Shown here: in pieces, positions 1-18,190 of the stretch | Position numbering within the stretch: position 1 is the stretch's first letter | How the letters are laid out: every line of letters starts with the position of its first letter | Notes under the pieces: model-generated | Told to the model about the DNA's origin: nothing | The model's input: only the letters and a program-made list of their open reading frames with translations | Databases searched by the model: none | Translations under genes and position numbers: made by a program | NCBI GenBank assembly: GCA_030167145.1 | Contig: CP126532.1 | Span: 1,230,001-1,262,000 of the forward strand | Direction of reading: 5' to 3' | DNA from: Ktedonobacterales bacterium | Lineage (GTDB): Bacteria; Chloroflexota; Ktedonobacteria; Ktedonobacterales; JADMIN01 | DNA: 32,000 nucleotides

Positions 1-26
1 CCCACACACCCTTCTCGTCGTCCAGA

Positions 27-545
27 TTAGTCCGTATCCGTGGCGTGCTGGCGTTGCCACCAGTCGCCAACTGAGCCAGAGCGGGGCGCCTCACCCGTGA
101 CGGGCGCCTGAGTCGCCTTGGACTCGGCCTCTTCCCTGGCACGCGAAAGTTCGCGCATCTGGTCCAGGGGATCAGAGGGGATGTTTTCCGCCCGCGCCAG
201 TAGGCTCGCGACCACCGCCGTATCGGCAGCCTGCGCCGCCGCAACGGGAGCGGGGGTGGCGCTGGCTTTAGCGGTCGCGGGCTTACCCGCGGGCCGAAGT
301 CGGTCCAAGTCTGGATCCAGTTTCGGCATAGCTGCCTTAATCACGTCAATGTCACTCAGCTTGTGGCCCTGCTGTGTGTAGTTAAGGAGGGCCGCAATGA
401 TGGGGTTCTCCAGGGGAGGGAGCGCGGTGGGATGGGCTGGAGCCATCTTCTGCACCCGGACCCGTTCCTGCTCGTAGGTGTTAATCTGATCGCGCAGGCG
501 GCGTCCGATCTCCTGGTGATGCAACCACTGTCTGTACTTGCCCAT
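27..545 (-). CDS. hypothetical protein (172 aa; basic/helical N-terminus, Ala/Pro-rich middle, acidic C-terminus)
   Basis: ATG at 545-543 preceded by GGAG about 8 nt upstream (gcGGAGtaactaATG). Uninterrupted 172-codon ORF. No family motif recognised. Confidence 0.55.
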   Translation of the reverse strand: MGKYRQWLHHQEIGRRLRDQINTYEQERVRVQKMAPAHPTALPPLENPIIAALLNYTQQGHKLSDIDVIKAAMPKLDPDLDRLRPAGKPATAKASATPAPVAAAQAADTAVVASLLARAENIPSDPLDQMRELSRAREEAESKATQAPVTGEAPRSGSVGDWWQRQHATDTD

Positions 546-2198: not shown

Positions 2199-2468
2199 GC
2201 GTGTAGCCTCTACTTCACTGTTGTGGTGGGTGGGCGCGATGTATGGATGTCAGTGGGTATGTATACAAGACGATAGGGCATTGGTGTCTAGGGGTGATGA
2301 TAGCCCGGCGAGGGGTGGGGTGTCAAAGGAGGAGCGGCGGGAAAGAGTCGCGGGCGGTTGATGTAGGACGAGCGGGTAGTTGAAACCGCGCTTGTCGGAA
2401 TGTCTGCTCTACTACAGCGGACAGCAGAGGGAAAGGACCGGATAATCGAGGCGTGTGGCTGGGTGGGT

Positions 2469-3587
2469 TTATTCGGCCTCGGTGGTGGAGGCGCCAAGCG
2501 CGGGGAGGTTGCGCTGCTGGGCGCGGCGGCGGCGGCGCTCGTGCAGGGCGCGACGGATGCTGACCACGCGCTCGTAGGGCCAGTAGATCAGCGGGCGCAG
2601 CACGAGATCTTGCGTGGGAAGCACGCGCCAGACATAGCCACCGAAGCCGCGTTTATAGAGGTAGACGCCGTAGAGGTCTTCGCCCGGCTCAAGCTTATCG
2701 GGGATGGTACGCCAGTCATAATACTTCGCCCCGTGCGCCTTGGCCCACTTGATCGCCTCCCATTGCAGGGGATGATTCGGGCGCAACTTGCGATGTTCGG
2801 GCATGTCAGAGGATGCGCCGTGCAGATACCACGCCCACTCGCCCAGGACGGCCACGGTCAGTGCGGAGACCAGTTCGCCGTTGTGCTCGCCGAGGAAGAG
2901 CACCATATGCGCGGTGCCGTCGCGCGCCGCCGCCTCAGCCGAATAGTGCGCGAGCATATCGCGGAAGAGGTCTTTGGGGTAGATGTAGAAACCGTCGCGC
3001 TTGCCGGTCTCTACTAAGAGGCCGTAGAAGGCGTCGAGGTCGGCTTCACCCGCAGCGATGCGGAAGGTCATGCCGCTTTTCGCTCCGGCGCGCACATAGC
3101 GCCGCCACGAGGCCGACATGTTGGCCAGAATCTCTTGTTCCGTGCCGCTGATGTCGGTGACCCATGCGCCAGTCATGTAGATATTGTGGGTGGTCTCGCG
3201 GAAGCCTAGCCGCTTGAGCGCCACGGTCCAGGACTTGTCATCGCACGAAACGTTCGGCTCCGCGCGAATCAGGAATGCCCCGCGCTTGCGCGCCTCGCGC
3301 CTGGCGAAGGTGATCAGCAGCGGCAGCGCAGGCGAATTGGGGTCCGCGCAGACGGGACCGCGCGGCGAATAGAAGAACGGCGTGGGAACGCCCTGCGCCT
3401 TGCTGCGCACCAGCAGCATCGCCGCCACCAGCCGGTCGCCATCCATCACGCCGACGCGCAGCGAGCCGTGGCGCGCCTCTGGCTCGGAATGCTCCGGCCA
3501 CTCATAGGTTTGGCAGATATGCCCGGTGGGATTCTCGGCGACAAAGCGGTTCCAGAGGAGTCGGTTCTCGATCAGCTTCGCTTCCAA
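2469..3587 (-). CDS. FemAB-family peptidoglycan peptidyltransferase (lipid II aminoacyl transferase-like)
   Basis: The track ORF 2469..4160 overlaps the antiporter, so its N-terminal part is unlikely to be translated. I place the start at TTG 3587 (GAGGTGGAATA-TTG); GTG 3602 is an alternative. The product begins 'LEAKLIENRLLWNRFVAENPTGHICQTYEWPEH...' and continues with FemX-like features such as 'WAWYLHGASS', 'PNHPLQWEAIKWAKAHGAKYYDW' and 'LYGVYLYKRGFGG'. Confidence 0.8.
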   Translation of the reverse strand: MEAKLIENRLLWNRFVAENPTGHICQTYEWPEHSEPEARHGSLRVGVMDGDRLVAAMLLVRSKAQGVPTPFFYSPRGPVCADPNSPALPLLITFARREARKRGAFLIRAEPNVSCDDKSWTVALKRLGFRETTHNIYMTGAWVTDISGTEQEILANMSASWRRYVRAGAKSGMTFRIAAGEADLDAFYGLLVETGKRDGFYIYPKDLFRDMLAHYSAEAAARDGTAHMVLFLGEHNGELVSALTVAVLGEWAWYLHGASSDMPEHRKLRPNHPLQWEAIKWAKAHGAKYYDWRTIPDKLEPGEDLYGVYLYKRGFGGYVWRVLPTQDLVLRPLIYWPYERVVSIRRALHERRRRRAQQRNLPALGASTTEAE

Positions 3588-3636
3588 TATTCCACCTCGC
3601 ACCCAAGCTCGCGCATATCGGATAACACAGAGCAGG

Positions 3637-3665
3637 AGTATAGCAGAGCCGTTCGCGCCGGGCAA
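3637..3665 (-). promoter_or_regulatory. sigma70-like promoter candidate for the FemAB-family gene
   Basis: On the minus strand: TTGCCC (3665-3660), 17 nt, TATACT (3642-3637). It lies about 50 nt upstream of the TTG start at 3587. Confidence 0.35.
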
Positions 3666-3699
3666 ACCGGCTGGCACAGACGGGTAGGCAAGCGCGTCG

Positions 3700-3837
3700 C
3701 TAGTCGGGGTCAAGCGCCGACTTCGGTTCGGTCGCGTAGGATGCGCGCCACGCGGCATAGCCGCCGCGCAAGGCGCGGGCGTCGAAGCCCAACGCGCGTA
3801 GCTGCCGCGCCACACGGGCGCTGGTTGCCTCGTGCGC
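3700..3837 (-). other. in-frame continuation of the antiporter ORF past TGA 3838-3840; encodes the missing C-terminal half of the rhodanese domain
   Basis: The same frame reads AHEATSARVARQLRALGFDARALRGGYAAWRASYATEPKSALDPD and then TAG (3702-3700). There is no other stop in these 45 codons. 'LGF..ARAL.GGY.AW' is the canonical rhodanese C-terminal helix-strand motif. Confidence 0.65.
3805..3824 (-). promoter_or_regulatory. GC-rich stem-loop 14 nt downstream of the in-frame TGA (SECIS-like candidate)
   Basis: RNA CC-A-GCGCC CGUGU GGCGC-GG: 7 bp with one bulged A and a 5-nt loop with G at loop position 2. The loop starts 22 nt after the UGA. Hairpins like this are frequent in GC-rich DNA, so the evidence is weak on its own. 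Confidence 0.3.
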
Positions 3838-5298
3838 TCAGGTGCAGTAGGCCACCACCGTGCGGTCGCGCGCCGCCTTGGCCGCCCATTCGAGAATCTG
3901 ATCAGGGACGACACGGACGCTGCCCGGAATCTGGTTCTGCGCGACGTCGTATTGCGCGCGTGTCCGCACATCCAGCACCACGGGCGGTTTGTCGCTGGCA
4001 AGCAGTTCCGCCAGTTCTTCGGGCGCGACGCGGGGCACGGCATCGGCTTCGCCCTGGAACAGGCCACCGACGGTACCCTCGCGCTCCTCGGCGGGCGTCT
4101 GCTGGGCGTGCGCCACCTGGCGCGCGTAGCGGGCGGCCAGGGGGTTGGCGGTGACACCATGTGCGACGACGGAGACCAGCACGACCACGCCAGTGACAGC
4201 CAGCAGACTCACTGCGCCGGGCACGTTGGCCTCCACCACCAGCAGGGCGAGCAGCAACGCGCTGAGGCCACGCGGGCCGAACCAGCCGATGAAGGCGCGC
4301 CCAGCGGCGCTGATGGTGGCCCGCCGCAAGACGAGATCGAAGGCAACGGGGCGAATGATGCCGATGGCAATGATCGCCAGCAGTAGCGCGGGAAAGATGG
4401 CAATCGTGCCAAAGAGCGTGGAGAGCACCGCGCCGAATAAAAGGAAGGCGAGCAACATCGCCATCTCGGCGGTGACTTCGCCGTATTCGAGGAAACAATC
4501 GCAGAGCGTCACATCGAAAATCGCCACGGCGAGACCGGCGAAGTAGGCCGCGAGAAAGCCATCGCCGCCAACGACCTGGGCCGCCGCGTATGCGGCGAGC
4601 ACCAGCCCCATTCCGTACATCGCCTGGTACTCACGGCGGATGTTCATGCGCTTGTCCACCTGACCCATCAGCCACGCGCCAATTCCGCCGACGATCAGCC
4701 CAACCACTGGGCTGAGCACCAGCAATTGCGCCAGGAATCCGAACCAGGCGAATGCGCCGTGGAGGGATGCCTGGCTGATGGCAATCAAGATCAGGATGAT
4801 GGGCAGCACGACGATATCGTTCATGCCGGCTTCGATGCTCAGCGCACGACGTACCGAGCGCGGGATGCGCTCGTTGCGGACGATATCGCGCAGCACGATG
4901 ATGTCGGTTGAGGCGAGAACCGCGCCAAGCAGCAGCGACTGCGGCAGCGTGGTTCCCAGGAGCCAGTGCGCGACCAGCGCGATGCCGACGACGGTAAGCA
5001 GCGTGCCCGGCCCCAGAGAGAGCAGCGGCACGTGCCAATCGCGGCGCAGTTCTTCGATTTCCAGGTTGACGGCGTCGAGGAAGAGCACCAGCGCCAGGCT
5101 GAGGGTGGCAACGGCGACGAGCACCGGCGAATGCGGGCCAAGCGTGATAACGCCGGTGACGCCTTGGCCCAGGAGCAGACCGAGGCCGAGAAACAGCATG
5201 GGGAAGGAGACCGGCGCGCGTTCGACGAAGCGCGAGACCAGCGCCGATATCAGTAGGACCAGGGCCACCAGGGCGAACCACGAGGTCAGGTCGTTCAT
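3838..5298 (-). CDS. CPA1-family cation/proton (Na+/H+) antiporter fused to a C-terminal rhodanese domain; conventional call ending at TGA 3838-3840
   Basis: ATG at 5298 with AGGAG about 10 nt upstream. Polytopic membrane domain with 'ASTDIIVL' and 'SIEAGMNDIVVLP' exchanger motifs. The C-terminal 'ELAELLASDKPPVVLDVRTRAQYD..IPGSVRV..RDRTVVAYCT' is the N-terminal half of a rhodanese fold, and it ends at a stop two codons after the catalytic-position Cys. Confidence 0.9.
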   Translation of the reverse strand: MNDLTSWFALVALVLLISALVSRFVERAPVSFPMLFLGLGLLLGQGVTGVITLGPHSPVLVAVATLSLALVLFLDAVNLEIEELRRDWHVPLLSLGPGTLLTVVGIALVAHWLLGTTLPQSLLLGAVLASTDIIVLRDIVRNERIPRSVRRALSIEAGMNDIVVLPIILILIAISQASLHGAFAWFGFLAQLLVLSPVVGLIVGGIGAWLMGQVDKRMNIRREYQAMYGMGLVLAAYAAAQVVGGDGFLAAYFAGLAVAIFDVTLCDCFLEYGEVTAEMAMLLAFLLFGAVLSTLFGTIAIFPALLLAIIAIGIIRPVAFDLVLRRATISAAGRAFIGWFGPRGLSALLLALLVVEANVPGAVSLLAVTGVVVLVSVVAHGVTANPLAARYARQVAHAQQTPAEEREGTVGGLFQGEADAVPRVAPEELAELLASDKPPVVLDVRTRAQYDVAQNQIPGSVRVVPDQILEWAAKAARDRTVVAYCT

Positions 5299-10943: not shown

Positions 10944-12137
10944 ATGGGGCGTGGACATCTGGTGATCGGGCAATCGGGCGGGGCGACGGCGGTGATCAAC
11001 GCGAGCCTGGTCGGGGCGGTGCGCGCGGCGTTCGCTGAGGACGCGATAGACAGCATCTACGGCGCGCGCTATGGCATCGAAGGGGTGCTACGGCGCGATC
11101 TGGTAGATCTGCGGCAGGAGCCGCTCGGCCTGTGGGATGCGCTGCTGACGACGCCGTCCGCCGCGCTGGGGTCGTGCCGTTACCGGCTGCGCGAGGGGGA
11201 TGCGGAACGGGCGGTGACGCAGCTACGCGACCTGGGCGCGCGCTACTTTCTGTATATCGGCGGCAACGATTCGGCGGATACGGCGCACCAGATGGCGCTG
11301 GCGGCGCGCGAGATGGACTATGACCTGCGGGTGATCTGCGTGCCGAAGACAATTGACAATGACCTGCCGGAGACGGACCACTGCCCTGGCTATGGCAGTG
11401 CGGGGCGATTTCTGGCGCTGGCGACGATGGATTCGGCGCTCTGCACGGAGTCTATGCCCTCGCACTATCCAGTGAAGTTGATCGAGGTGATGGGGCGCGA
11501 CGCAGGTTGGCTTGCGGCGACGGCGGCGCTGGGCAAGGAGCGCGAGGAGGATGCGCCGCACCTGATCTACTTTCCTGAACGGCCACTCAGCGCAGAGCGC
11601 TTTCTGCGCGATGTGCGCGAGGCGCATGCGCGCTACGGGCAGGTGGTAGCGGTGGTGGCGGAGACGGTGCGGGATGAGCAGGGGCAATCGCTAGGGGCGC
11701 TGGGCAGCCAGGGGACCGATGCGTTCGGGCATCCGCTGCTGAGCGGTGCGGCGCAGTATCTGGTGAGCCTGGTGCGCGCGGAGCTAGGGCTGCGGGCGCG
11801 GTTCGATAAGCCGGGGGATTTGCAGCGGATGTCGTCGGCGTGTGTCTCGGAGACGGACCGGGCGGAGGCGGAGGCGGTGGGGCGGGCAGCGCTGCGCGCG
11901 GCGGTGGCGGGGGAGACGGATAAGATGGTGACGCTGGCGCGCGCGCCGGGGCCGGAGTATGCCTGCGAGACGGGGCTGACGGAACTGGCGCGCGTAGCGA
12001 ATACGCTGCGCCCGATGCCGGAGGAGTTCATCACACCGGAGGGAACTGGGGTGACGGAGGCGTTCCGGCGTTACGCGCTGCCGCTGCTGGGCGCAGCTCT
12101 GCCCCAGCATGCGCGACTGGTGGGCGTGCAGGCATAG
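10944..12137 (+). CDS. 6-phosphofructokinase family protein (possibly PPi-dependent)
   Basis: I place the start at ATG 10944. Motifs 'GQSGGATAVINASL', 'YIGGNDSADTA', 'VPKTIDNDL' and 'VMGRDAGWLAA'. 'GGNDS' puts Asp where ATP-PFKs have Gly (GGDGS), which hints at PPi dependence. That is inference only. Confidence 0.88.
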   Translation: MGRGHLVIGQSGGATAVINASLVGAVRAAFAEDAIDSIYGARYGIEGVLRRDLVDLRQEPLGLWDALLTTPSAALGSCRYRLREGDAERAVTQLRDLGARYFLYIGGNDSADTAHQMALAAREMDYDLRVICVPKTIDNDLPETDHCPGYGSAGRFLALATMDSALCTESMPSHYPVKLIEVMGRDAGWLAATAALGKEREEDAPHLIYFPERPLSAERFLRDVREAHARYGQVVAVVAETVRDEQGQSLGALGSQGTDAFGHPLLSGAAQYLVSLVRAELGLRARFDKPGDLQRMSSACVSETDRAEAEAVGRAALRAAVAGETDKMVTLARAPGPEYACETGLTELARVANTLRPMPEEFITPEGTGVTEAFRRYALPLLGAALPQHARLVGVQA

Positions 12138-12238: not shown

Positions 12239-13687
12239 TTAGAGGTGGAAGGCGTAGAGCCTGCTGTTTACCGACCCCACGTACACGATGCCGTCAGCGA
12301 TGACGGGCGATGCGGATGAGTAGTTTCCGATATATGTCGAGAAGTCCACTGCTCCCGATGTGGCGTCCAGGGCGAGCAGATCACCGCCACCGCCGACGAC
12401 ATAGACCAGCCCGTTGGCGACGGCTGCCGAGGAGGTGATAGGGCCAGCGGTACCGAATGCCCAAGCCTGCACTCCGGTTACTGCGTTGACAGCGTGCAAT
12501 GTGTAGTCCGCCGAGCCGATGTAGACCATCCCATTAGCAACCGCTGGGGAGGCGGTGATCGGGCCGCCAGTAGCGGCACTCCAGATCAACTTGCTCGTCT
12601 TGGCGTTCAGCGCGTAAAGATTCTGGTCGGCGGAGCCGATATAGAGCACCTGTGTCGCGGTTCCGCCGATAGTCTCAGAGGCCACGGCCGCCGAAGACTG
12701 GATACTGCCACCGGTCGTGTAGCTCCAGGCCAGAGCACCGGTGGCGGTATTGAGCGCATACAACGAATTGCCAGAGCCGAAGTAGACATTCCCATTCGCG
12801 ACCGCAGGCGACGAGAAGATCGAGTTCGTGGTGCTGTAGGTCCAGATCAGCGTGCCAGTTGCGGCGTTCAAGGCATAGAGGCCGCCGTTTTGTGAGCCGA
12901 CATAGACCACCGAAGTTTTCGTGCCGCTAATGGTTGCCGATGCGACGACTGGCGAGGAGGCGATAGCGCCGGTGGCATAGCTCCAAACGAGCTTGCCGGT
13001 CGTGGCATTCAGCGCATACAGGGTGTTGTCGAAGGAGCCGACGTAGACGATTCCATTCGAGACTACCGCCGAGGAGCGGATGAAGCCGCCGGTCGCGTAA
13101 CTCCATTTGAGCGCGCCCGTCGAGACGTTGATTGCGTACAGTATGCCATCTTCTGAGCCAATGTAGGCAATCCCTTTCACCACCACCGGCGAAGCGACCA
13201 CCTCGTTGCCAGTGGTGTAGCTCCAGTCGAGCGCCAGCCCGGAGACGTTCGAGGTGTTGAGCACATTCTCATAGGGGTTGTAGCGTCCGCCCTGCGCGCT
13301 GAATCCGAACGGATTCCAATTGGTCTGGACCAGGAAGGTCGCGGAGGCGGTCAGCTTACTCGTCGCGCCAATGCCGGTGACGGTGTGATTGCCAGGTGTC
13401 GCGGTCGCGGGCACGGTAAGAGATGCGCTGAAGGCGCCAGCGGAGCTGGTCGTCGCCGTGCCGACAGTGGTGCTGTCGAAGGTGATGGTAACGCTCTCTG
13501 AAGCGCCGAACCCTGAGCCATTGACGGTCGTTTTGGTGGTCGGGGGGCCAGAATTGCTGGGAAGCTTCAGCGTAGCCCCGCTCGCTAAGGCAATGTTGCC
13601 AGTTGTGAAACCAGTCTCAGCGCATAAGAGCGCCAGCATTATGCTGGTAGCCAGCGCCACCCGCAGTCGCATCACATGCCTGAACAC
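12239..13687 (-). CDS. secreted PQQ-like (BamB-type) 8-bladed beta-propeller repeat protein with N-terminal Ig-like domain
   Basis: Eight repeats of the form 'G(I/V)VY(V/I)GS.D..LYALNA.TG.L.W(S/T)Y'. Signal peptide 'MRLRVALATSIMLALLCAETG'. I place the start at GTG 13687 (AGGAGGA + about 7 nt); ATG 13672 is an alternative. Confidence 0.85.
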   Translation of the reverse strand: MFRHVMRLRVALATSIMLALLCAETGFTTGNIALASGATLKLPSNSGPPTTKTTVNGSGFGASESVTITFDSTTVGTATTSSAGAFSASLTVPATATPGNHTVTGIGATSKLTASATFLVQTNWNPFGFSAQGGRYNPYENVLNTSNVSGLALDWSYTTGNEVVASPVVVKGIAYIGSEDGILYAINVSTGALKWSYATGGFIRSSAVVSNGIVYVGSFDNTLYALNATTGKLVWSYATGAIASSPVVASATISGTKTSVVYVGSQNGGLYALNAATGTLIWTYSTTNSIFSSPAVANGNVYFGSGNSLYALNTATGALAWSYTTGGSIQSSAAVASETIGGTATQVLYIGSADQNLYALNAKTSKLIWSAATGGPITASPAVANGMVYIGSADYTLHAVNAVTGVQAWAFGTAGPITSSAAVANGLVYVVGGGGDLLALDATSGAVDFSTYIGNYSSASPVIADGIVYVGSVNSRLYAFHL

Positions 13688-13878
13688 GGTGTTCCTCCTT
13701 CGTCGCCATTCATCCATACACTTCGCCGCTACGCCGTGTGCGTCAGCGCCTATGCGCTTTGTAGCGCTGAGCGGCCACTATGCACAGGGCGATAGGTGTA
13801 CGAAAAGGGTACTTTCGTATCAACCGGGAGTTGGGAGGCAATTGTCGAGGAGGCGGCGACGTGCGCGCAGCGGATGCG

Positions 13879-14736
13879 CTAGCGCGTGGCGGGGAAGTGG
13901 TAGCGGAGGAAGAGGTGGCTTTCGGCGCGCCTGACACTGGTGAGGCTGCCCCAGAGCGGGGCGGCGGGCGCGAAGATGCGGCCTTCGGCGAGGCCGGGGC
14001 GGTTGTGCTGAGTGTCGCGTCCGGCGATCTGGGGTGCGAGGGTCAGGAATAGCTCGTTGAGCAGATGTTCCGCGAAGAAGTCGCCCATGATGTGCGGGCC
14101 GCCTTCGACGAGGATACGCTCAGTTGGCTGCGCGTCTTGAATGGCGCGGAGGATGCTCGCCGCCGCGACGCTATCGCCGGGCTGGGGGGAGACGTGGACG
14201 TGTGGAGGCAAGGTGTGCTGGGCGAGGCGCGTTGCGCCCGCCGCCGTGGTGACGATCAACGTTTGCACGCGGCCAGAGGCGAAGACAGGCAGCGTGAGGT
14301 CGAGGTCGCCGCGAGCGGTGACGATGACGTTGAGCGGCGGCTGATGCAGGCCCAACGCGGTCCGCAACGCTTGGTAGTCGGCTGCCAGCGGGGGATAGAT
14401 GTAGTCCGCCGTCCACAGGTGCTTGGGCACAGAGCGCAGGGTGCCCGCGCCAGCGACGACGGCGCCAGCGACGGCGCGCAGGATGCCCATCACCGCGCGG
14501 TCGTGCTGGTTGAAGCCGCTGATGTCGCCGCCGCCCGCGTGGTTGGGGTCGTCGAGCGCGACAACGCCGTCGAGCGTGCTGACGAAGTTGGCGAAGATAT
14601 GGGGGCTGCGCTGTGCTGGCGGAGGCAAGCTGAGCGGCCCGTAGAGGGCCGCCAGCGCCGGTGGCAGGGGAAGTGGCTCGCCAGGGGTGTCATCGAAGAG
14701 GGTGACGAGTGGGGTGAGTGGGGCCGACGCGCTCAT
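13879..14736 (-). CDS. RibD C-terminal domain / DHFR-fold reductase family protein
   Basis: 'ANFVSTLDGVVAL', 'DRAVMGILRAVAGAVVAGAGTLR', 'ILVEGGPHIMGDFFAEHLLNELFLTLAPQIAG' and the overall length fit pyrimidine-reductase-like RibD_C proteins. The ATG overlaps the folE stop as ATGA (14733-14736). Confidence 0.72.
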   Translation of the reverse strand: MSASAPLTPLVTLFDDTPGEPLPLPPALAALYGPLSLPPPAQRSPHIFANFVSTLDGVVALDDPNHAGGGDISGFNQHDRAVMGILRAVAGAVVAGAGTLRSVPKHLWTADYIYPPLAADYQALRTALGLHQPPLNVIVTARGDLDLTLPVFASGRVQTLIVTTAAGATRLAQHTLPPHVHVSPQPGDSVAAASILRAIQDAQPTERILVEGGPHIMGDFFAEHLLNELFLTLAPQIAGRDTQHNRPGLAEGRIFAPAAPLWGSLTSVRRAESHLFLRYHFPATR

Positions 14737-15386
14737 TTGGCGCTGGCTCCGCTGAGGTTGAGGAACTCGGCGCGCAACGCAGGGTTCTTGGCAAATTCGC
14801 CGCGCCAGCAGGTGGTGCGGGTCAGCGAGGTGTCTTCGCGGACGCCGCGCATCTGGGTGCAGAGGTGATGCGCTTCGAGGTAGACGGCGACGCCGTGGGG
14901 CCAGAGCATCGTTTCCAGGGCTTCGGCGATCTGCTGGGCCATGCGCTCTTGCACGGTGAAGCGCTGGGCGAAGAGCCGCACCAGGCGGGTGAGCTTGGAG
15001 ATGCCGATGATGTGTTCATGGGCAATATAGGCGACGTAGGCGCGTCCGTAGAAGGGCAGCGCGTGATGCTCGCAGAGGGCGTAGAACTGGATCGGCCCTT
15101 CGATGACCTGGCTGAGATGGCAATCTGGCTCGCCCCGGCACTCGGCATCGAAGACGGTCAGCAGCTTAGGGTCGCCCTCGTAGCCTTGTGTTGCATCATA
15201 CATCGCTTGAATGAAACGTCGCGGGGTATCTTCGGTGGCCTGGGTGTTCATCTCCATGCCGAAGGCGGCGAAGATTTCGGCGGCATAGCCCTCGAAGGTG
15301 CGCATTTGCTCTTCGGTGACATGGCGGGGTCGAAGCTGTGTCACTGTTTCAATGGTTTCTTCATCCTGCTCAATACGTAAGGCCAT
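14733..15386 (-). CDS. folE: GTP cyclohydrolase I (FolE type, zinc-dependent)
   Basis: 'FYALCEHHALPFYGRAYVAYI', 'IGISKLTRLVRLFAQRFTVQERMAQQIA' and 'EAHHLCTQMRGV' are the canonical FolE motifs, including the Cys/His zinc ligands. I place the start at ATG 15386 (GGAGGA + 7 nt). The track's ATG 15401 contains that SD. Confidence 0.9.
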   Translation of the reverse strand: MALRIEQDEETIETVTQLRPRHVTEEQMRTFEGYAAEIFAAFGMEMNTQATEDTPRRFIQAMYDATQGYEGDPKLLTVFDAECRGEPDCHLSQVIEGPIQFYALCEHHALPFYGRAYVAYIAHEHIIGISKLTRLVRLFAQRFTVQERMAQQIAEALETMLWPHGVAVYLEAHHLCTQMRGVREDTSLTRTTCWRGEFAKNPALRAEFLNLSGASAK

Positions 15387-15422
15387 GATGACGTCCTCCA
15401 TATACCTGATTACTATGACTGG

Positions 15423-16103
15423 TTACAATGCCGGAGCCTCGGTTGGGGTATCGGCGCTGGCGTCGCAGGCGATCTCGAACTGGCAGCGCGGCTGCTGCTC
15501 GCCTTCGCAGACACACTGCGCGCACACTGGTGTTCCGGCGATGTCGCTGACCAGGGTTTCGGTGAGCGCGCAGATTTCGGGATGACCCGGAACCGCTGCC
15601 GCGAGGGGGCAGCTATAGCCGGTGATGATGTAGTGTCCGTCGCGCAGCTCAAGCTCGGCCAGGCCGCCCAGGGCGTTGAGCGTGCGGGTCACCGCTTCGG
15701 CGCGGCTGTGCGCGTCGGACTTGGTGGCGACGGGAAGCTGGAGGGCCATGCGGTGGCCGACTTCGCGCGCCGCTGTGGTGAGTGCTTCGGCGGGCATGCG
15801 CGCGCTGAGGATGTCGAGCAACTCGCGCAGCGCCTGGGCGTAGGGACGCGGAAAGATGTGCTCAGCCTCGGCGGTGAGCACGTATTCATAGGCGGGCTTG
15901 CCACTGCAACCGCTGCGCCGCACGCCGCGCTGCTGGGCGAGGCCGTCGCGCTCCAGCGCGGCCAGATGGACTCGCACGGCGTTATCGGTGAGATCGAGCG
16001 CCTGGGCCAGTTCTTCGACGGTGCGCGCATTGCGGCGCAGCAGCAGCAGGATCTGGCCGCGCGTGCTGGTGAGCATGCGTGCGTCCCATTGTCGCGCTGT
16101 CAT
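15423..16103 (-). CDS. ArsR-like winged-helix transcriptional regulator with Cys-rich C-terminal domain
   Basis: N-terminal 'RGQILLLLRRNARTVEELAQALDLTDNAVRVHLAALERDGL' is an ArsR/SmtB-type HTH. The last ~65 residues carry 7 Cys ('YSCP..EICAL..PVCAQCVCEGEQQPRCQFEIAC'). ATG with GAGGAGGAG upstream. Confidence 0.75.
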   Translation of the reverse strand: MTARQWDARMLTSTRGQILLLLRRNARTVEELAQALDLTDNAVRVHLAALERDGLAQQRGVRRSGCSGKPAYEYVLTAEAEHIFPRPYAQALRELLDILSARMPAEALTTAAREVGHRMALQLPVATKSDAHSRAEAVTRTLNALGGLAELELRDGHYIITGYSCPLAAAVPGHPEICALTETLVSDIAGTPVCAQCVCEGEQQPRCQFEIACDASADTPTEAPAL

Positions 16104-16163
16104 ACGCTCCTCCTCTGAATATCTGACCTACTCTCTAGAGCGTAGTACATCATGCACCGATAC

Positions 16164-16196
16164 GTCAAGTATGTCAAAGGAATATTTGACAAATAT
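16164..16196. promoter_or_regulatory. AT-rich cluster of GTCAA/TTGAC half-sites and overlapping palindromes upstream of the ArsR-like gene (operator candidate)
   Basis: tacGTCAAgtaTGTCAAAggaataTTTGACAaatat. It contains TGTCAAA-6-TTTGACA (16172-16191) and the perfect ATATTTG-a-CAAATAT (16182-16196). It lies 60-95 nt upstream of ATG 16103 and is the most AT-rich patch in this intergenic region. Confidence 0.45.
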
Positions 16197-16260
16197 GACC
16201 GATCTTGTGACGCATGTGGCGGCGCGGTGTTGGTGTTTTGTCGTGTGTGTGTACGTTGGG

Positions 16261-16803
16261 TTAGTGTGGGGGCAGGCCTACGCCGTGATCATAGACCATT
16301 GCACCGCCGAGATAGCCGGTGACGGCGAGCATCACCACGCCGAAGACGCTGGCGACGAGGTAGAGCGCGACCAACGAGCGCGGCAGGCGCGGGGCGTAGA
16401 GCAGTGGGAAGATGATCTTGGTCTGGCGCTCGACGCCGGCGATGGCGGGCGCGGTGCGCGGGAAGGTGAGGCGGAGCCAGCCGAGGATGCGGGGGAAGAG
16501 CCAGGCAAGGCGAAGCAGCAGCAGAAGGCTGAACATCACCGAGGTGAGTACGGCGAAGGATTTGTGCAGATGCAGCAAACTGCCAGCGGGCGCGAGGTTG
16601 ACATCGCGTTCGCTGAGCCAGCCGGATAAGAGGGCGACGAGCGCACCAGGGAGGCCGAGAATCAACAGCCAGGTGGCGGCGGTGGTGAGGCCAGCGCGGC
16701 GGAGGAAGACGGCCACGAGGTCGAGCGCGACACTGGTGATGAGCAGGGCGATGGGAAAATGAACCAGAATTGGATGCAGTTCGGCAAGTCGTAGCGATGG
16801 CAT
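16261..16803 (-). CDS. DUF2231-like integral membrane protein
   Basis: The N-terminal 'HPILVHFPIALLITSVALDL' is the DUF2231 hallmark as I recall it. About 5 TM helices. It lies 70 nt downstream of the DoxX-Rieske gene. Confidence 0.68.
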   Translation of the reverse strand: MPSLRLAELHPILVHFPIALLITSVALDLVAVFLRRAGLTTAATWLLILGLPGALVALLSGWLSERDVNLAPAGSLLHLHKSFAVLTSVMFSLLLLLRLAWLFPRILGWLRLTFPRTAPAIAGVERQTKIIFPLLYAPRLPRSLVALYLVASVFGVVMLAVTGYLGGAMVYDHGVGLPPH

Positions 16804-16873
16804 GGGAGCAAACCTTCGTTATATGGAGAACTGGTGGATGATACAGCCAGGTATATCGGGGCGCATGGGACCA

Positions 16874-18190
16874 TTAGCCGCTGACGCGGATGGCGCCGGT
16901 GGCGGTGTCTACCTGGATGGGTACACTGGTGAGCGGAGTATCGGTTGGTCCCTGAATGACGGAGGCGCCCTGGGTGGGATCGAACTCAGCGCCATGGCAG
17001 GGGCAGTAGAGGATGCTGCTGCCAGGATCATACTGCACAGGGCATCCCGCGTGGGTACAGGTGGCATCGAAGGCGACGAATTTGCCATTGGGGAGATGCA
17101 CGACGATACCGGGATCGCCATTGGAGGGAATGGTGAAGTCTGCGGAACTATTGGTGGGCACCTGGCTGACCTGGGCGATGGTCGTTCCCGCCGTTCCGCT
17201 GGTGGCGGTGGCGTCGGTGGCGCTGGTGGTGGCGGCGGGTGTCTCGGCGGGTGTGGCGGTGGGGGCGGCGCTTTGGGCGCTGGCGCTTGTCTGGCGGAAC
17301 CGTGAGACGAGGAAGACCAGGGCGAGTGTGCTGCCGATACCCGCTGCTGCACCCCGCAGGAACTCGCGCCGGGTTGCCTGGGGGGTGAGTCCGCGCTGGG
17401 AGCGTGCGCGGGGATTGCGCGAGCTGGAAGCGCCGCGCTGGCCAGTGAGCGGACGAGCGGTGCGGGAGGTGGGAAGGGCGGATTGCGCTGCTGGTTGTGG
17501 CGCGGGTTGCGCGAGCGGTGTGGCGGGATCGGTGATGCCGAGCGCTGCGCGCAACACGGCCGCAACGATAGGCTGGCGGTGGGGGGGCACGCGGGCCATA
17601 ATCCAGGCTGCTAGCCGGGGATCGAGCGTGGGCCAGCCGCAGGCGGCCGCGCCAGCGAGCAGGATGGTGACCCACCCAAAGAGGAAGACGATGTCTGAGC
17701 CGTAGAAGTACGGATGGATGCGCCAGCTTGCAGAGAGGAAGAAGATCAGGCTGAGCAATGCGCCGAAGAATGCCGCTGGTCGCAGCAGCAGACCGGCCAA
17801 GGCGCCGAGGCCAATGGCTAGCTCGCCGTAGGCGATCAGCGCACCGAAGAGCTGGGCGTGAGGTGAGGCGACCTGAAGCAAGAGTCCGCGAATCGGCGAA
17901 CTTATCGCGAATGTGGTGATTTGCTTACCGACATAGCCTGGGGCTGAAGAGCGGAAGTATTGTGGGTTGGTCAGTTTTTGTAGACCGGCGTAGACGAAGG
18001 TGATGCCAAGAAAAGCGCGTAAGGGCAGCAGCACCCGCCCCGCCAGCGGCAGCCGTCCCCAGGCGGCCCAGAGGGCGCCGAGTGGCATGTGGCGTTGCGT
18101 GGGGGTGGGGCGACGCATTGGAGGAGACTGCGGTTTGGTGCGTGGGTTCATATCACCTCGTGTTCCAGGGGTATTCAGGCGCTTGTCCAT
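16874..18190 (-). CDS. DoxX-family membrane domain fused to a Tat-motif-preceded Rieske [2Fe-2S] domain
   Basis: aa ~45-185: four TM helices ('LRAFLGITFVYAGLQKL', 'LFGALIAYGELAIGLGALAGLLL', ...), DoxX/DoxD-like. aa 273-296: 'TRREFLRGAAAGIGSTLALVFLVS'. C-terminus: 'CTHAGCP...(x12)...CPCHGAEFD' Rieske ligands. The start is uncertain (ATG 18190 or ATG 18151). Confidence 0.85.
   Translation of the reverse strand: MDKRLNTPGTRGDMNPRTKPQSPPMRRPTPTQRHMPLGALWAAWGRLPLAGRVLLPLRAFLGITFVYAGLQKLTNPQYFRSSAPGYVGKQITTFAISSPIRGLLLQVASPHAQLFGALIAYGELAIGLGALAGLLLRPAAFFGALLSLIFFLSASWRIHPYFYGSDIVFLFGWVTILLAGAAACGWPTLDPRLAAWIMARVPPHRQPIVAAVLRAALGITDPATPLAQPAPQPAAQSALPTSRTARPLTGQRGASSSRNPRARSQRGLTPQATRREFLRGAAAGIGSTLALVFLVSRFRQTSASAQSAAPTATPAETPAATTSATDATATSGTAGTTIAQVSQVPTNSSADFTIPSNGDPGIVVHLPNGKFVAFDATCTHAGCPVQYDPGSSILYCPCHGAEFDPTQGASVIQGPTDTPLTSVPIQVDTATGAIRVSG

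Follow-up and report, generated by a model that had tools for sequence, protein, structure and literature searches.

Rhodanese domains with selenocysteine (Sec) in their active site are an established kind of selenoprotein. The 2026 catalogue of prokaryotic selenoproteins lists five rhodanese forms, of which form 3, with a CxU motif, is the one defined by the NCBIfam model NF041203, rhodanese_LYCAU (PMC13188914). It was first predicted by Zhang and Gladyshev in 2005. The other rhodanese selenoproteins of the catalogue, namely forms 1, 2 and 4 (UxxS or UxxG) and the rhodanese/DsbD fusion TsoB (UxxxxU), have different motifs of their own, without the upstream Cys, and none of them is joined to a cation/proton antiporter (PMC13188914). 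Sec is also found within, or attached to, membrane transporters: the E1-E2 cation ATPase with UxxC, the SO_0444 Cu/Zn efflux protein with UxC, YeeE/YedE and SaoP, transporter-linked selenoproteins being linked mostly to metal or metalloid resistance according to the same review (PMC13188914). However, none of these is a secondary antiporter of the cation/proton antiporter (CPA) family and none has its Sec in a rhodanese module. We describe here a gene which would combine the two. It lies on the minus strand, from 5298 to 3700, of a stretch of 32,000 nucleotides from a Ktedonobacterales bacterium (assembly GCA_030167145.1, contig CP126532.1, positions 1,230,001 to 1,262,000), which we call the window. 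Its frame is interrupted by a TGA at 3840-3838. From the comparison of sequences we conclude, with a probability of about 0.9, that this TGA is a selenocysteine codon and that the gene encodes a selenoprotein of 532 residues. The protein would consist of an NhaP-type antiporter, a flexible linker and a C-terminal, presumably cytoplasmic, rhodanese domain with Sec at the catalytic position.

The best curated match to this rhodanese domain is NF041203 itself (E = 5.6e-27, positions 17-126 of 126), a rhodanese with Sec in Y-C-x-U. The differences are the following: the score, 90.4 bits with the full protein and 93.9 bits with the domain alone, is below the cut-off of 115; the model, with its 126 positions, has the size of a single-domain protein while the domain of the window makes up residues 417-526 of a 532-aa antiporter; and the motif reads A-Y-C-T-U in the window instead of L-Y-C-A-U. 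Since the score stays below the cut-off and the protein is not single-domain, it departs from this family on two points out of three, the shared one being the motif. The fusion is not covered by any NCBIfam model above its cut-off, the 2026 catalogue contains no antiporter or exchanger selenoprotein (PMC13188914), and a literature search for one found nothing relevant. Large surveys may have counted such genes under the form 3 rhodanese. Sec-containing rhodanese domains were thus already known; what is new is the architecture, or subfamily, of a CPA-family antiporter which carries Sec.

The open reading frame (ORF) starts with the ATG at 5298 and runs over 486 codons to 3838, ending in ...RDRTVVAYCT before the TGA. 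Beyond the TGA the same frame goes on for 45 codons (3703..3837, minus strand), AHEATSARVARQLRALGFDARALRGGYAAWRASYATEPKSALDPD, without any stop or frameshift, up to a TAG at 3702-3700, which is read from the sequence as the true stop of the gene. The full gene as proposed (3700..5298, minus strand) thus has 532 codons, Sec being codon 487, followed by the TAG; orthologues with Cys at position 487 have 530-546 aa. A sigma-70-like element, TTGCCC-17-TATACT, is found at 3665-3637, beyond the TAG. All these coordinates had been given by the first-pass annotation, a reading made from the window alone, and they hold in the sequence, as does its remark that the promoter-like element begins only after the TAG. 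An identical TGA with 260 identical flanking bases is present in a second assembly (Logan SRR22113990, locus L089). In the databases, the entry identical to the truncated protein of the window is a "hypothetical protein OJF49_001130" of 486 aa from a Ktedonobacterales metagenome-assembled genome (MAG), and all TGA-form entries among the matches listed are annotated as proteins of about 484-487 aa, some of them named "cation:proton antiporter". The gene caller of the Joint Genome Institute (JGI) puts a 'gene' of 30 aa inside the read-through segment (11507-11599 of locus L088, about 3792-3700 of the window, minus strand). This call is an artefact of the Sec codon being taken as a stop.

The rhodanese homology domain (residues 426-519; 3742..4023, minus strand) spans the TGA. 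When the TGA is read through, Pfam PF00581 is matched from position 2 to 101 of 102 with 50.4 bits, for a gathering threshold of 22.2 bits, and the whole domain is covered only in this case: the truncated product reaches only position 68 of the model. The read-through segment is therefore the missing second half of the rhodanese, as had been supposed from the window. In pairwise alignments to three solved rhodaneses (3iwh, 6mxv and domain 2 of 1yt8), the TGA falls on the column of the catalytic Cys. The loop U-A-H-E-A-T-S is aligned there with C-A-G-G-V-R-S, C-G-G-G-F-R-S and C-A-G-R-T-R-S, and its length is equal to theirs, which is that of the catalytic type. This corrects the first-pass annotation, which had placed the TGA two codons after the catalytic Cys: C485 (TGC, 3844..3846, minus strand) is not the catalytic residue, because the TGA codon (3838..3840, minus strand) occupies that column. 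C485 is an additional Cys, invariant in the family (82 of 82 orthologues, like Y484 before it), at the end of the preceding beta-strand, and it forms with the proposed Sec487 a C-x-U motif.

The active-site strand and loop read Y-C-T-U-x-x-E-A-T-S-A-R, with an invariant Glu at +3 and a Thr or Ser where the solved sulfurtransferases carry an Arg. In thiosulfate sulfurtransferases, basic residues of this loop hold an anionic sulfur donor. A loop with a Glu and deprived of the Arg may, from its sequence, point to another substrate or a sensor role. We used an AlphaFold2 (AF2) model of a Cys-form homologue, P0016 (mean predicted local distance difference test score, pLDDT, 82.8; predicted template modelling score, pTM, 0.74), in which the rhodanese module is well modelled and where the strand ending in C485 directly precedes the active-site loop. 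After the Sec/Cys position it shows a helix (489-503), a strand (507-511) and a second helix (514-521). Translation stopping at the TGA would leave out all three, and the domain could then not form.

We then considered how the codon behaves among orthologues. One genome per species (GTDB representatives) was scanned with the family alignment, which gave 80 loci. The codon following YC[T] is TGA in 57 of them and TGC or TGT, hence Cys, in the 23 others; TAA, TAG or a codon for any other residue is never found (0/80). The same alternation is visible in protein databases, where homologues fall into two classes of length. Those of about 530-546 aa cover 99% of the read-through query and read YCTCPDEASSGR, while those of about 483-487 aa, dozens of proteins with 65-71% identity, all end exactly at ...(V/I)(A/T)YCT; the DNA of two members of this short class shows in both a TGA and then an open and conserved frame. 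The first-pass annotation had supposed that relatives read C-[ST]-C-P-x-E-A-[ST]-S at this place, which is what the Cys-form orthologues show, and the comparison of orthologues it had asked for thus gives full-length proteins with Cys at the TGA site on the one hand, and TGA followed by an open frame on the other.

Beyond the TGA, every TGA locus has 40-63 further open codons in the same frame, which encode PxEATSARVARQLxxLGFxAxALxGGYxAW...EPK. The final stops of the TGA-form orthologues are mixed (28 TGA, 20 TAG and 13 TAA) while the internal stop is a TGA in 60 sequences out of 60. After the TGA and outside the hairpin described below, the entropy at the three codon positions is 0.88, 0.81 and 1.49; in the 120 nt upstream of the TGA it is 1.16, 1.17 and 1.58, so that the constraint downstream is at least as strong. 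The third positions being the most variable after the TGA, this region is translated and under purifying selection. The TGA form occurs in Ktedonobacterales, in Roseiflexaceae, Herpetosiphonaceae and other Chloroflexia, in Thermomicrobiales (including the isolate Nitrolancea hollandica Lb, L042), in Dehalococcoidia, in some Caldilineaceae, Ardenticatenales and Anaerolineae, and also in Rubrobacter and other Rubrobacteraceae. Across these genomes, which belong to several Chloroflexota classes and to the Rubrobacteria, the protein identity is 54-71%.

Bacterial Sec codons are accompanied by a selenocysteine insertion sequence (SECIS), and in E. coli the minimal SECIS element lies 11 nt downstream of the UGA. 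We aligned the 60 distinct TGA-form sequences, all of them without gaps, numbering from the U of UGA as 1. RNAalifold finds in them a single helix, 20-24 with 30-34, closing a loop C25-G26-(U/G)27-G28-(U/C)29. In the window this core is GCGCC, loop CGUGU, GGCGC (+20 to +34; 3807..3821, minus strand). It begins 16 nt past the UGA, within the codons for S-A-R-V-A-R. Pairing is kept in 99.7% of the cells, with one mismatch in 300 (60 sequences times 5 pairs), and the remaining variation preserves it: four of the five pairs are G:U wobbles in some sequences, and the pair 21:33 changes on both sides, from C:G to U:A, in 5 sequences. As these two bases are third positions of a Ser (AGY) and of an Ala (GCR) codon, the change is synonymous on both sides and this covariation cannot be explained by the protein. 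The likeness to SECIS elements of the E. coli fdhF type, recognised by SelB, consists in a coding-region hairpin which closely follows the UGA and whose small apical loop contains G (PMC1088965); the differences are that this family has only 5 conserved bp, a loop CGUGY and a core at 16 nt from the UGA, the binding of SelB being putative.

At third positions the entropy is about 1.5 in either flank and falls to 0.60 within +19..+36. All 60 TGA-form sequences have C at position 24 and G at position 30, 50 of the 60 have T at position 27, and G26 and G28 never vary; the Cys forms show practically no constraint at the third positions among these. The Cys forms encode S-G-R-V-S-R where the TGA forms encode S-A-R-V/A-A-R, and they are devoid of the conserved hairpin, having at most a weak, wobble-rich pairing dictated by their codons. 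Where Cys forms have a Gly, Sec forms carry the Ala codon GCC, and so does the window. A 15-nt element, GYGCCCGKGYGGCRC, occurs exactly once in each matching TGA locus, at a constant offset and on the strand of the gene (3821-3807 in the window), and nowhere else in the 1.35 Mb of fetched DNA. The first-pass annotation had drawn a longer hairpin, at 3824-3805, with two extra C:G pairs and a bulged A (7 bp in all; 3805..3824, minus strand). This hairpin does exist in the window and is in the right place, but only its five inner pairs are conserved in the family, the two outer ones being present in 65% and 33% of the sequences. We rejected a still longer SECIS, extended by a lower stem of +10..+14 and +39..+43, as this stem is paired in 69% of the cases with zero compensatory changes.

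Several observations weigh against the reading of the TGA as Sec. Taken alone, the hairpin of the window gains no stability over shuffled sequence (z = 0.40), and the fold of minimum energy of the window RNA is a different hairpin; the support that is better than chance comes from the comparative data only. The conserved stem has just 5 bp and its covariation is limited to one pair, the other four being nearly invariant. Selection on the peptide S-A-R-V-A-R could explain part of this invariance, though third positions would then be expected to be free. Over the whole window Rfam gives zero matches at its gathering thresholds; at E <= 10, on 2300-4000, it gives three weak matches to unrelated families, SECIS and tRNA families being absent from them. 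Finally, neither the window nor a further 6 kb of flank, together about 38 kb of the 5.07-Mb contig, contained selA, selB, selD or tRNA-Sec. When E. coli SelA, SelB and SelD were compared by tblastn with the window and 1.35 Mb of loci, the window gave no match, and ARAGORN found tRNA-Sec neither in the window nor in the 83 of the fetched loci that it scanned.

Parts of the machinery are found near TGA-form genes of relatives. In locus L047 a full SelB lies 4 kb downstream of the gene (15850-17712, plus strand), with its GTP_EFTU, SelB beta-barrel, SelB-wing_2 and SelB-wing_3 domains and 31% identity to E. coli SelB over 622 residues. In L024, a Ktedonobacterales MAG, the N-terminus of a SelA lies 10 kb upstream (1-405, minus strand) and runs off the edge of the locus; it is matched by the Pfam family SelA, and related database proteins bear the name L-seryl-tRNA(Sec) selenium transferase. 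Among the matches listed in a protein-database search with this fragment there were only short SelA fragments, none of them on the contig of the window. L025 has a weaker SelA match (3-209, minus strand; tblastn E = 4e-6), whose translated frame is broken by stops. Two further matches to selB were discarded: the one in L039 is a CysN/CysC and the one in L016 covers the GTPase domain only. In L039, a Cys-form Caldilineaceae locus, the antiporter gene is followed at 1.3 kb by CysD-like and CysN/CysC genes of sulfate activation (12882-15846, plus strand), an arrangement not seen in the other loci. Sec decoding has been described in Rubrobacter, one of the taxa with the TGA form, and in the Dehalococcoidia, one of the classes with it: Rubrobacter xylanophilus is a Sec decoder with five selenoproteins (PMC1794560), a Dehalogenimonas (Dehalococcoidia) with selC, selA, selB and selD is a Sec decoder as well (PMC4918011), and an unusual 8/4 tRNA-Sec is known from Chloroflexi and Actinobacteria (PMC5389517). 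On the contig of the window TGA ends 6 of the 19 called genes (5 when this gene is left aside), and since TGA is an ordinary stop elsewhere on the contig, UGA is not reassigned. We infer the presence of the Sec machinery in this genome and the physical incorporation of selenium.

Other explanations of the TGA have to be weighed on this same evidence. A recent nonsense mutation, which the first-pass annotation had kept as an option, would have turned a Cys codon into TGA and left a broken rhodanese behind a truncated antiporter; TGC and TGT are indeed one substitution away, Cys-form orthologues exist and the public annotation is a protein of 486 aa. Yet 57 of the 80 species genomes keep the same TGA, and they span Chloroflexota classes and Rubrobacteria at the protein identities given above; their downstream frame is always open and shows coding-type substitutions, and a conserved RNA hairpin is not expected alongside such a mutation. 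The divergence of the TGA-form loci also excludes that they result from contamination by a single genome. The comparative data refute a pseudogene of this kind. They also leave very improbable a genuine termination at YCT, after which the 45 codons would be untranslated or separately expressed. Many database proteins do end there, gene callers stop there and one of them, that of JGI, calls a separate gene in the extension; but the extension is always in frame with the upstream ORF, the domain cannot fold without it (Pfam 2-68 against 2-101 of 102), it varies most at third codon positions, as translated sequence does, and the internal stop is uniformly TGA (60/60) while final stops are mixed. 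An error of sequencing or assembly, for which a single base, TGC read as TGA, would suffice, is the least credible of all: the sequence is identical in the second assembly, the codon recurs in 57 genomes, and the hairpin and the Ala codon GCC, specific to Sec forms and missing from Cys forms, are both present in the window.

It is less simple to distinguish Sec insertion from a read-through deprived of selenium, in which a near-cognate or suppressor tRNA (Trp or Cys) or a Cys-tRNA(Sec) would decode the UGA and the hairpin would merely stimulate the process. Read-through and selection on the hairpin, which the data show, would fit an inserted residue other than Sec as well, and the Sec machinery was not seen in the window and its flank. 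On the other side, the UGA stands at the catalytic Cys position and alternates solely with Cys codons, which is the signature of a Sec/Cys pair; in its position and in its small apical loop with G the hairpin agrees with bacterial SECIS elements (PMC1088965); SelB and SelA lie near TGA-form genes in relatives; and the nearest curated family is a selenoprotein. We regard such a read-through as very improbable. The selenocysteine recoding which the first-pass annotation had put forward is strongly supported, by the conservation of the codon, by the alternation of Cys and TGA and by the constraint on the hairpin; judged from sequences, the Sec reading is strongly supported for the family and very probable for this gene. 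In the recoding process we propose, the hairpin GCGCC-CGUGU-GGCGC (+20..+34) would be bound by SelB carrying Sec-tRNA(Sec) as the ribosome arrives at the UGA, and SelB would deliver Sec487 there in place of a release factor. A failure of recoding would yield a 486-residue antiporter with a half-domain unable to fold.

To follow the exchange between Sec and Cys we built a neighbour-joining tree, rooted by midpoint, from 400 residues upstream of the site, and as only these residues were used the tree is independent of the Sec or Cys state. All 23 Cys forms fall in one clade of Anaerolineae and Caldilineae, inside which three Sec forms (L043, L046 and L062) are nested. Beside the Sec form L043 stand two Cys forms, L052 (7054-7095) and L064 (3216-3257), which read YCHCPDDASSARVAR and have a degraded hairpin with 3/5 and 4/5 of the pairs. 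These degraded hairpins point to a replacement of Sec by Cys, and would be fossil SECIS-like elements. Because the rooting is by midpoint only, we can only infer the ancestral state. In the Actinomycetota, six Rubrobacter or Rubrobacteraceae loci (L063, L066, L067, L069, L070 and L081) have the TGA form and the same hairpin; L066 clusters with Chloroflexota sequences, apart from the other Rubrobacteraceae, which suggests a horizontal transfer of the whole selenoprotein gene including its SECIS.

The membrane part of the protein is an NhaP-type (CPA1) cation/proton antiporter domain (residues 16-388; 4135..5253, minus strand; Pfam Na_H_Exchanger PF00999, E = 2.7e-37). The family profile matches the PDB sequences of the archaeal CPA1 Na+/H+ antiporters PaNhaP and MjNhaP1; this profile is required, as phmmer with a single membrane-domain sequence gave zero PDB matches. 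The model of the Cys-form homologue P0016 superposes on these two structures (4cz8, 4czb) with a target-normalised TM-score of 0.75. Besides this fold, the family shares with them the TD and ND motifs and two Arg; unlike it, PaNhaP and MjNhaP1 have neither a C-terminal rhodanese nor Sec nor the C-D-C motif described below. The 'TD' ion-site motif, T131-D132 (4903..4908, minus strand), is aligned with ATDP of PaNhaP and its Asp is present in 82/82 orthologues; the 'ND' motif, N160-D161 (4816..4821, minus strand), is aligned with FND (N160 in 81/82, D161 in 82/82). Among CPA1 antiporters the ND type marks electroneutral exchange. Together with E156, R316 and R343, these residues are aligned to PaNhaP and are invariant or nearly so in the 82 orthologues; given the invariance of the ion-site residues D132, E156, N160-D161, R316 and R343, the transporter is probably active. 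At residue 133 (codon 4900-4902, minus strand) the window has an Ile after the TD motif (A-S-T-D-I), where 76 of the 82 orthologues have a Pro.

The membrane domain contains a second invariant C-x-C motif, C266-D-C268 (4495..4503, minus strand), in the context L-C-D-C-F..Y-G-E-V-T. Both Cys are present in 82/82 orthologues, and PaNhaP has no Cys there. With C485 and U487 this makes four conserved Cys or Sec residues, for which a relay or a metal site is conceivable. The linker, residues 401-416, has a pLDDT below 50 in the model of P0016 and is disordered there, so that the geometry between the two domains cannot be used.

What the rhodanese domain does for the antiporter is a matter on which we can be only tentative. 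By analogy with other exchangers, it may be a regulatory sensor and not a metabolic sulfurtransferase, and bring the cation/proton exchange under redox or thiol gating; we would not give this proposal even odds. The structural neighbours of the modelled transporter, KefC, SOS1, SLC9C1 and NHE1, have in common that a C-terminal cytoplasmic domain gates them. KefC (K+/H+, with a KTN domain; 8by2), SOS1 and SLC9C1 share with the present protein the arrangement of an exchanger followed by a C-terminal cytoplasmic regulatory domain, from which the analogy for gating is drawn, and KefC, which is gated by glutathione and its adducts, senses the chemistry of thiols and electrophiles; however, it belongs to the CPA2 family, its regulatory fold is another one and it has no Sec. 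The regulatory reading is also favoured by the ion-site residues kept in the transporter, by the linker disordered in the model and by a loop which is probably not of the sulfurtransferase type. There are no conserved gene neighbours, the largest neighbour cluster being found in 10 of 82 loci; hence the gene is not embedded in a sulfur pathway. C485 and U487 share one strand and loop; they would either join in a selenenylsulfide or take up sulfane sulfur or an electrophile, and this would be relayed to the transporter. More speculative still, and rather unlikely in our estimate, is the complete picture of a selenium-dependent antiporter gated by redox or thiol chemistry in which Sec, unlike the catalytic residue of soluble oxidoreductases, is the sensing residue of the rhodanese module, maybe with C266-x-C268 as a relay or metal site of four Cys/Sec residues. 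Against a gating role in general, the CxU pair might serve to bind a metal, or as a carrier of sulfur or selenium; a soft-metal site could be formed by CxU, possibly joined by C266-x-C268, and the second-best curated match to the domain is the chromate-resistance rhodanese ChrE.

A few observations concern other genes of the region. ARAGORN calls a tRNA-Ser (GGA) at 2453-2540 on the plus strand of the window, antisense to the 3' end of the FemAB ORF (2469-3587, minus strand); Rfam finds no tRNA at 2453-2540 even at E <= 10, and the call is probably a false positive. Upstream on the contig (5412-8474 of L088, about 9887-6825 of the window), genes for a BglII-like endonuclease and an MT-A70 methyltransferase likely form a restriction-modification pair. 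The same interval holds a VKOR gene beside a DUF929 gene. All four are unrelated to the antiporter-rhodanese gene.

The practical value of these results lies in annotation. The public annotation truncates the gene in dozens of soil and sludge bacteria, and it can be repaired by a simple rule: YC[T]-TGA, then GYGCCCGKGYGGCRC at +19. The interleaving of Sec and Cys forms in Anaerolineae and Caldilineae offers a clean series for the study of Sec-to-Cys replacement and of the cost in amino acids of a SECIS placed inside the active-site helix, where Cys forms have a Gly and Sec forms an Ala encoded by GCC. A widespread selenoprotein is added to largely aerobic lineages of soil, sludge and thermophilic habitats, namely Ktedonobacterales, Chloroflexia, Thermomicrobiales, Dehalococcoidia and Rubrobacteria, which were not known as rich in selenoproteins, and a link between selenium, thiol chemistry and ion homeostasis becomes testable. 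If the domain gates transport, ion and pH homeostasis would be tied to the chemistry of thiols and selenols; and if the complete picture is true, the aerobic Chloroflexota and the Rubrobacteria would couple their pH and ion homeostasis to redox, sulfane-sulfur or electrophile stress and to the supply of selenium.

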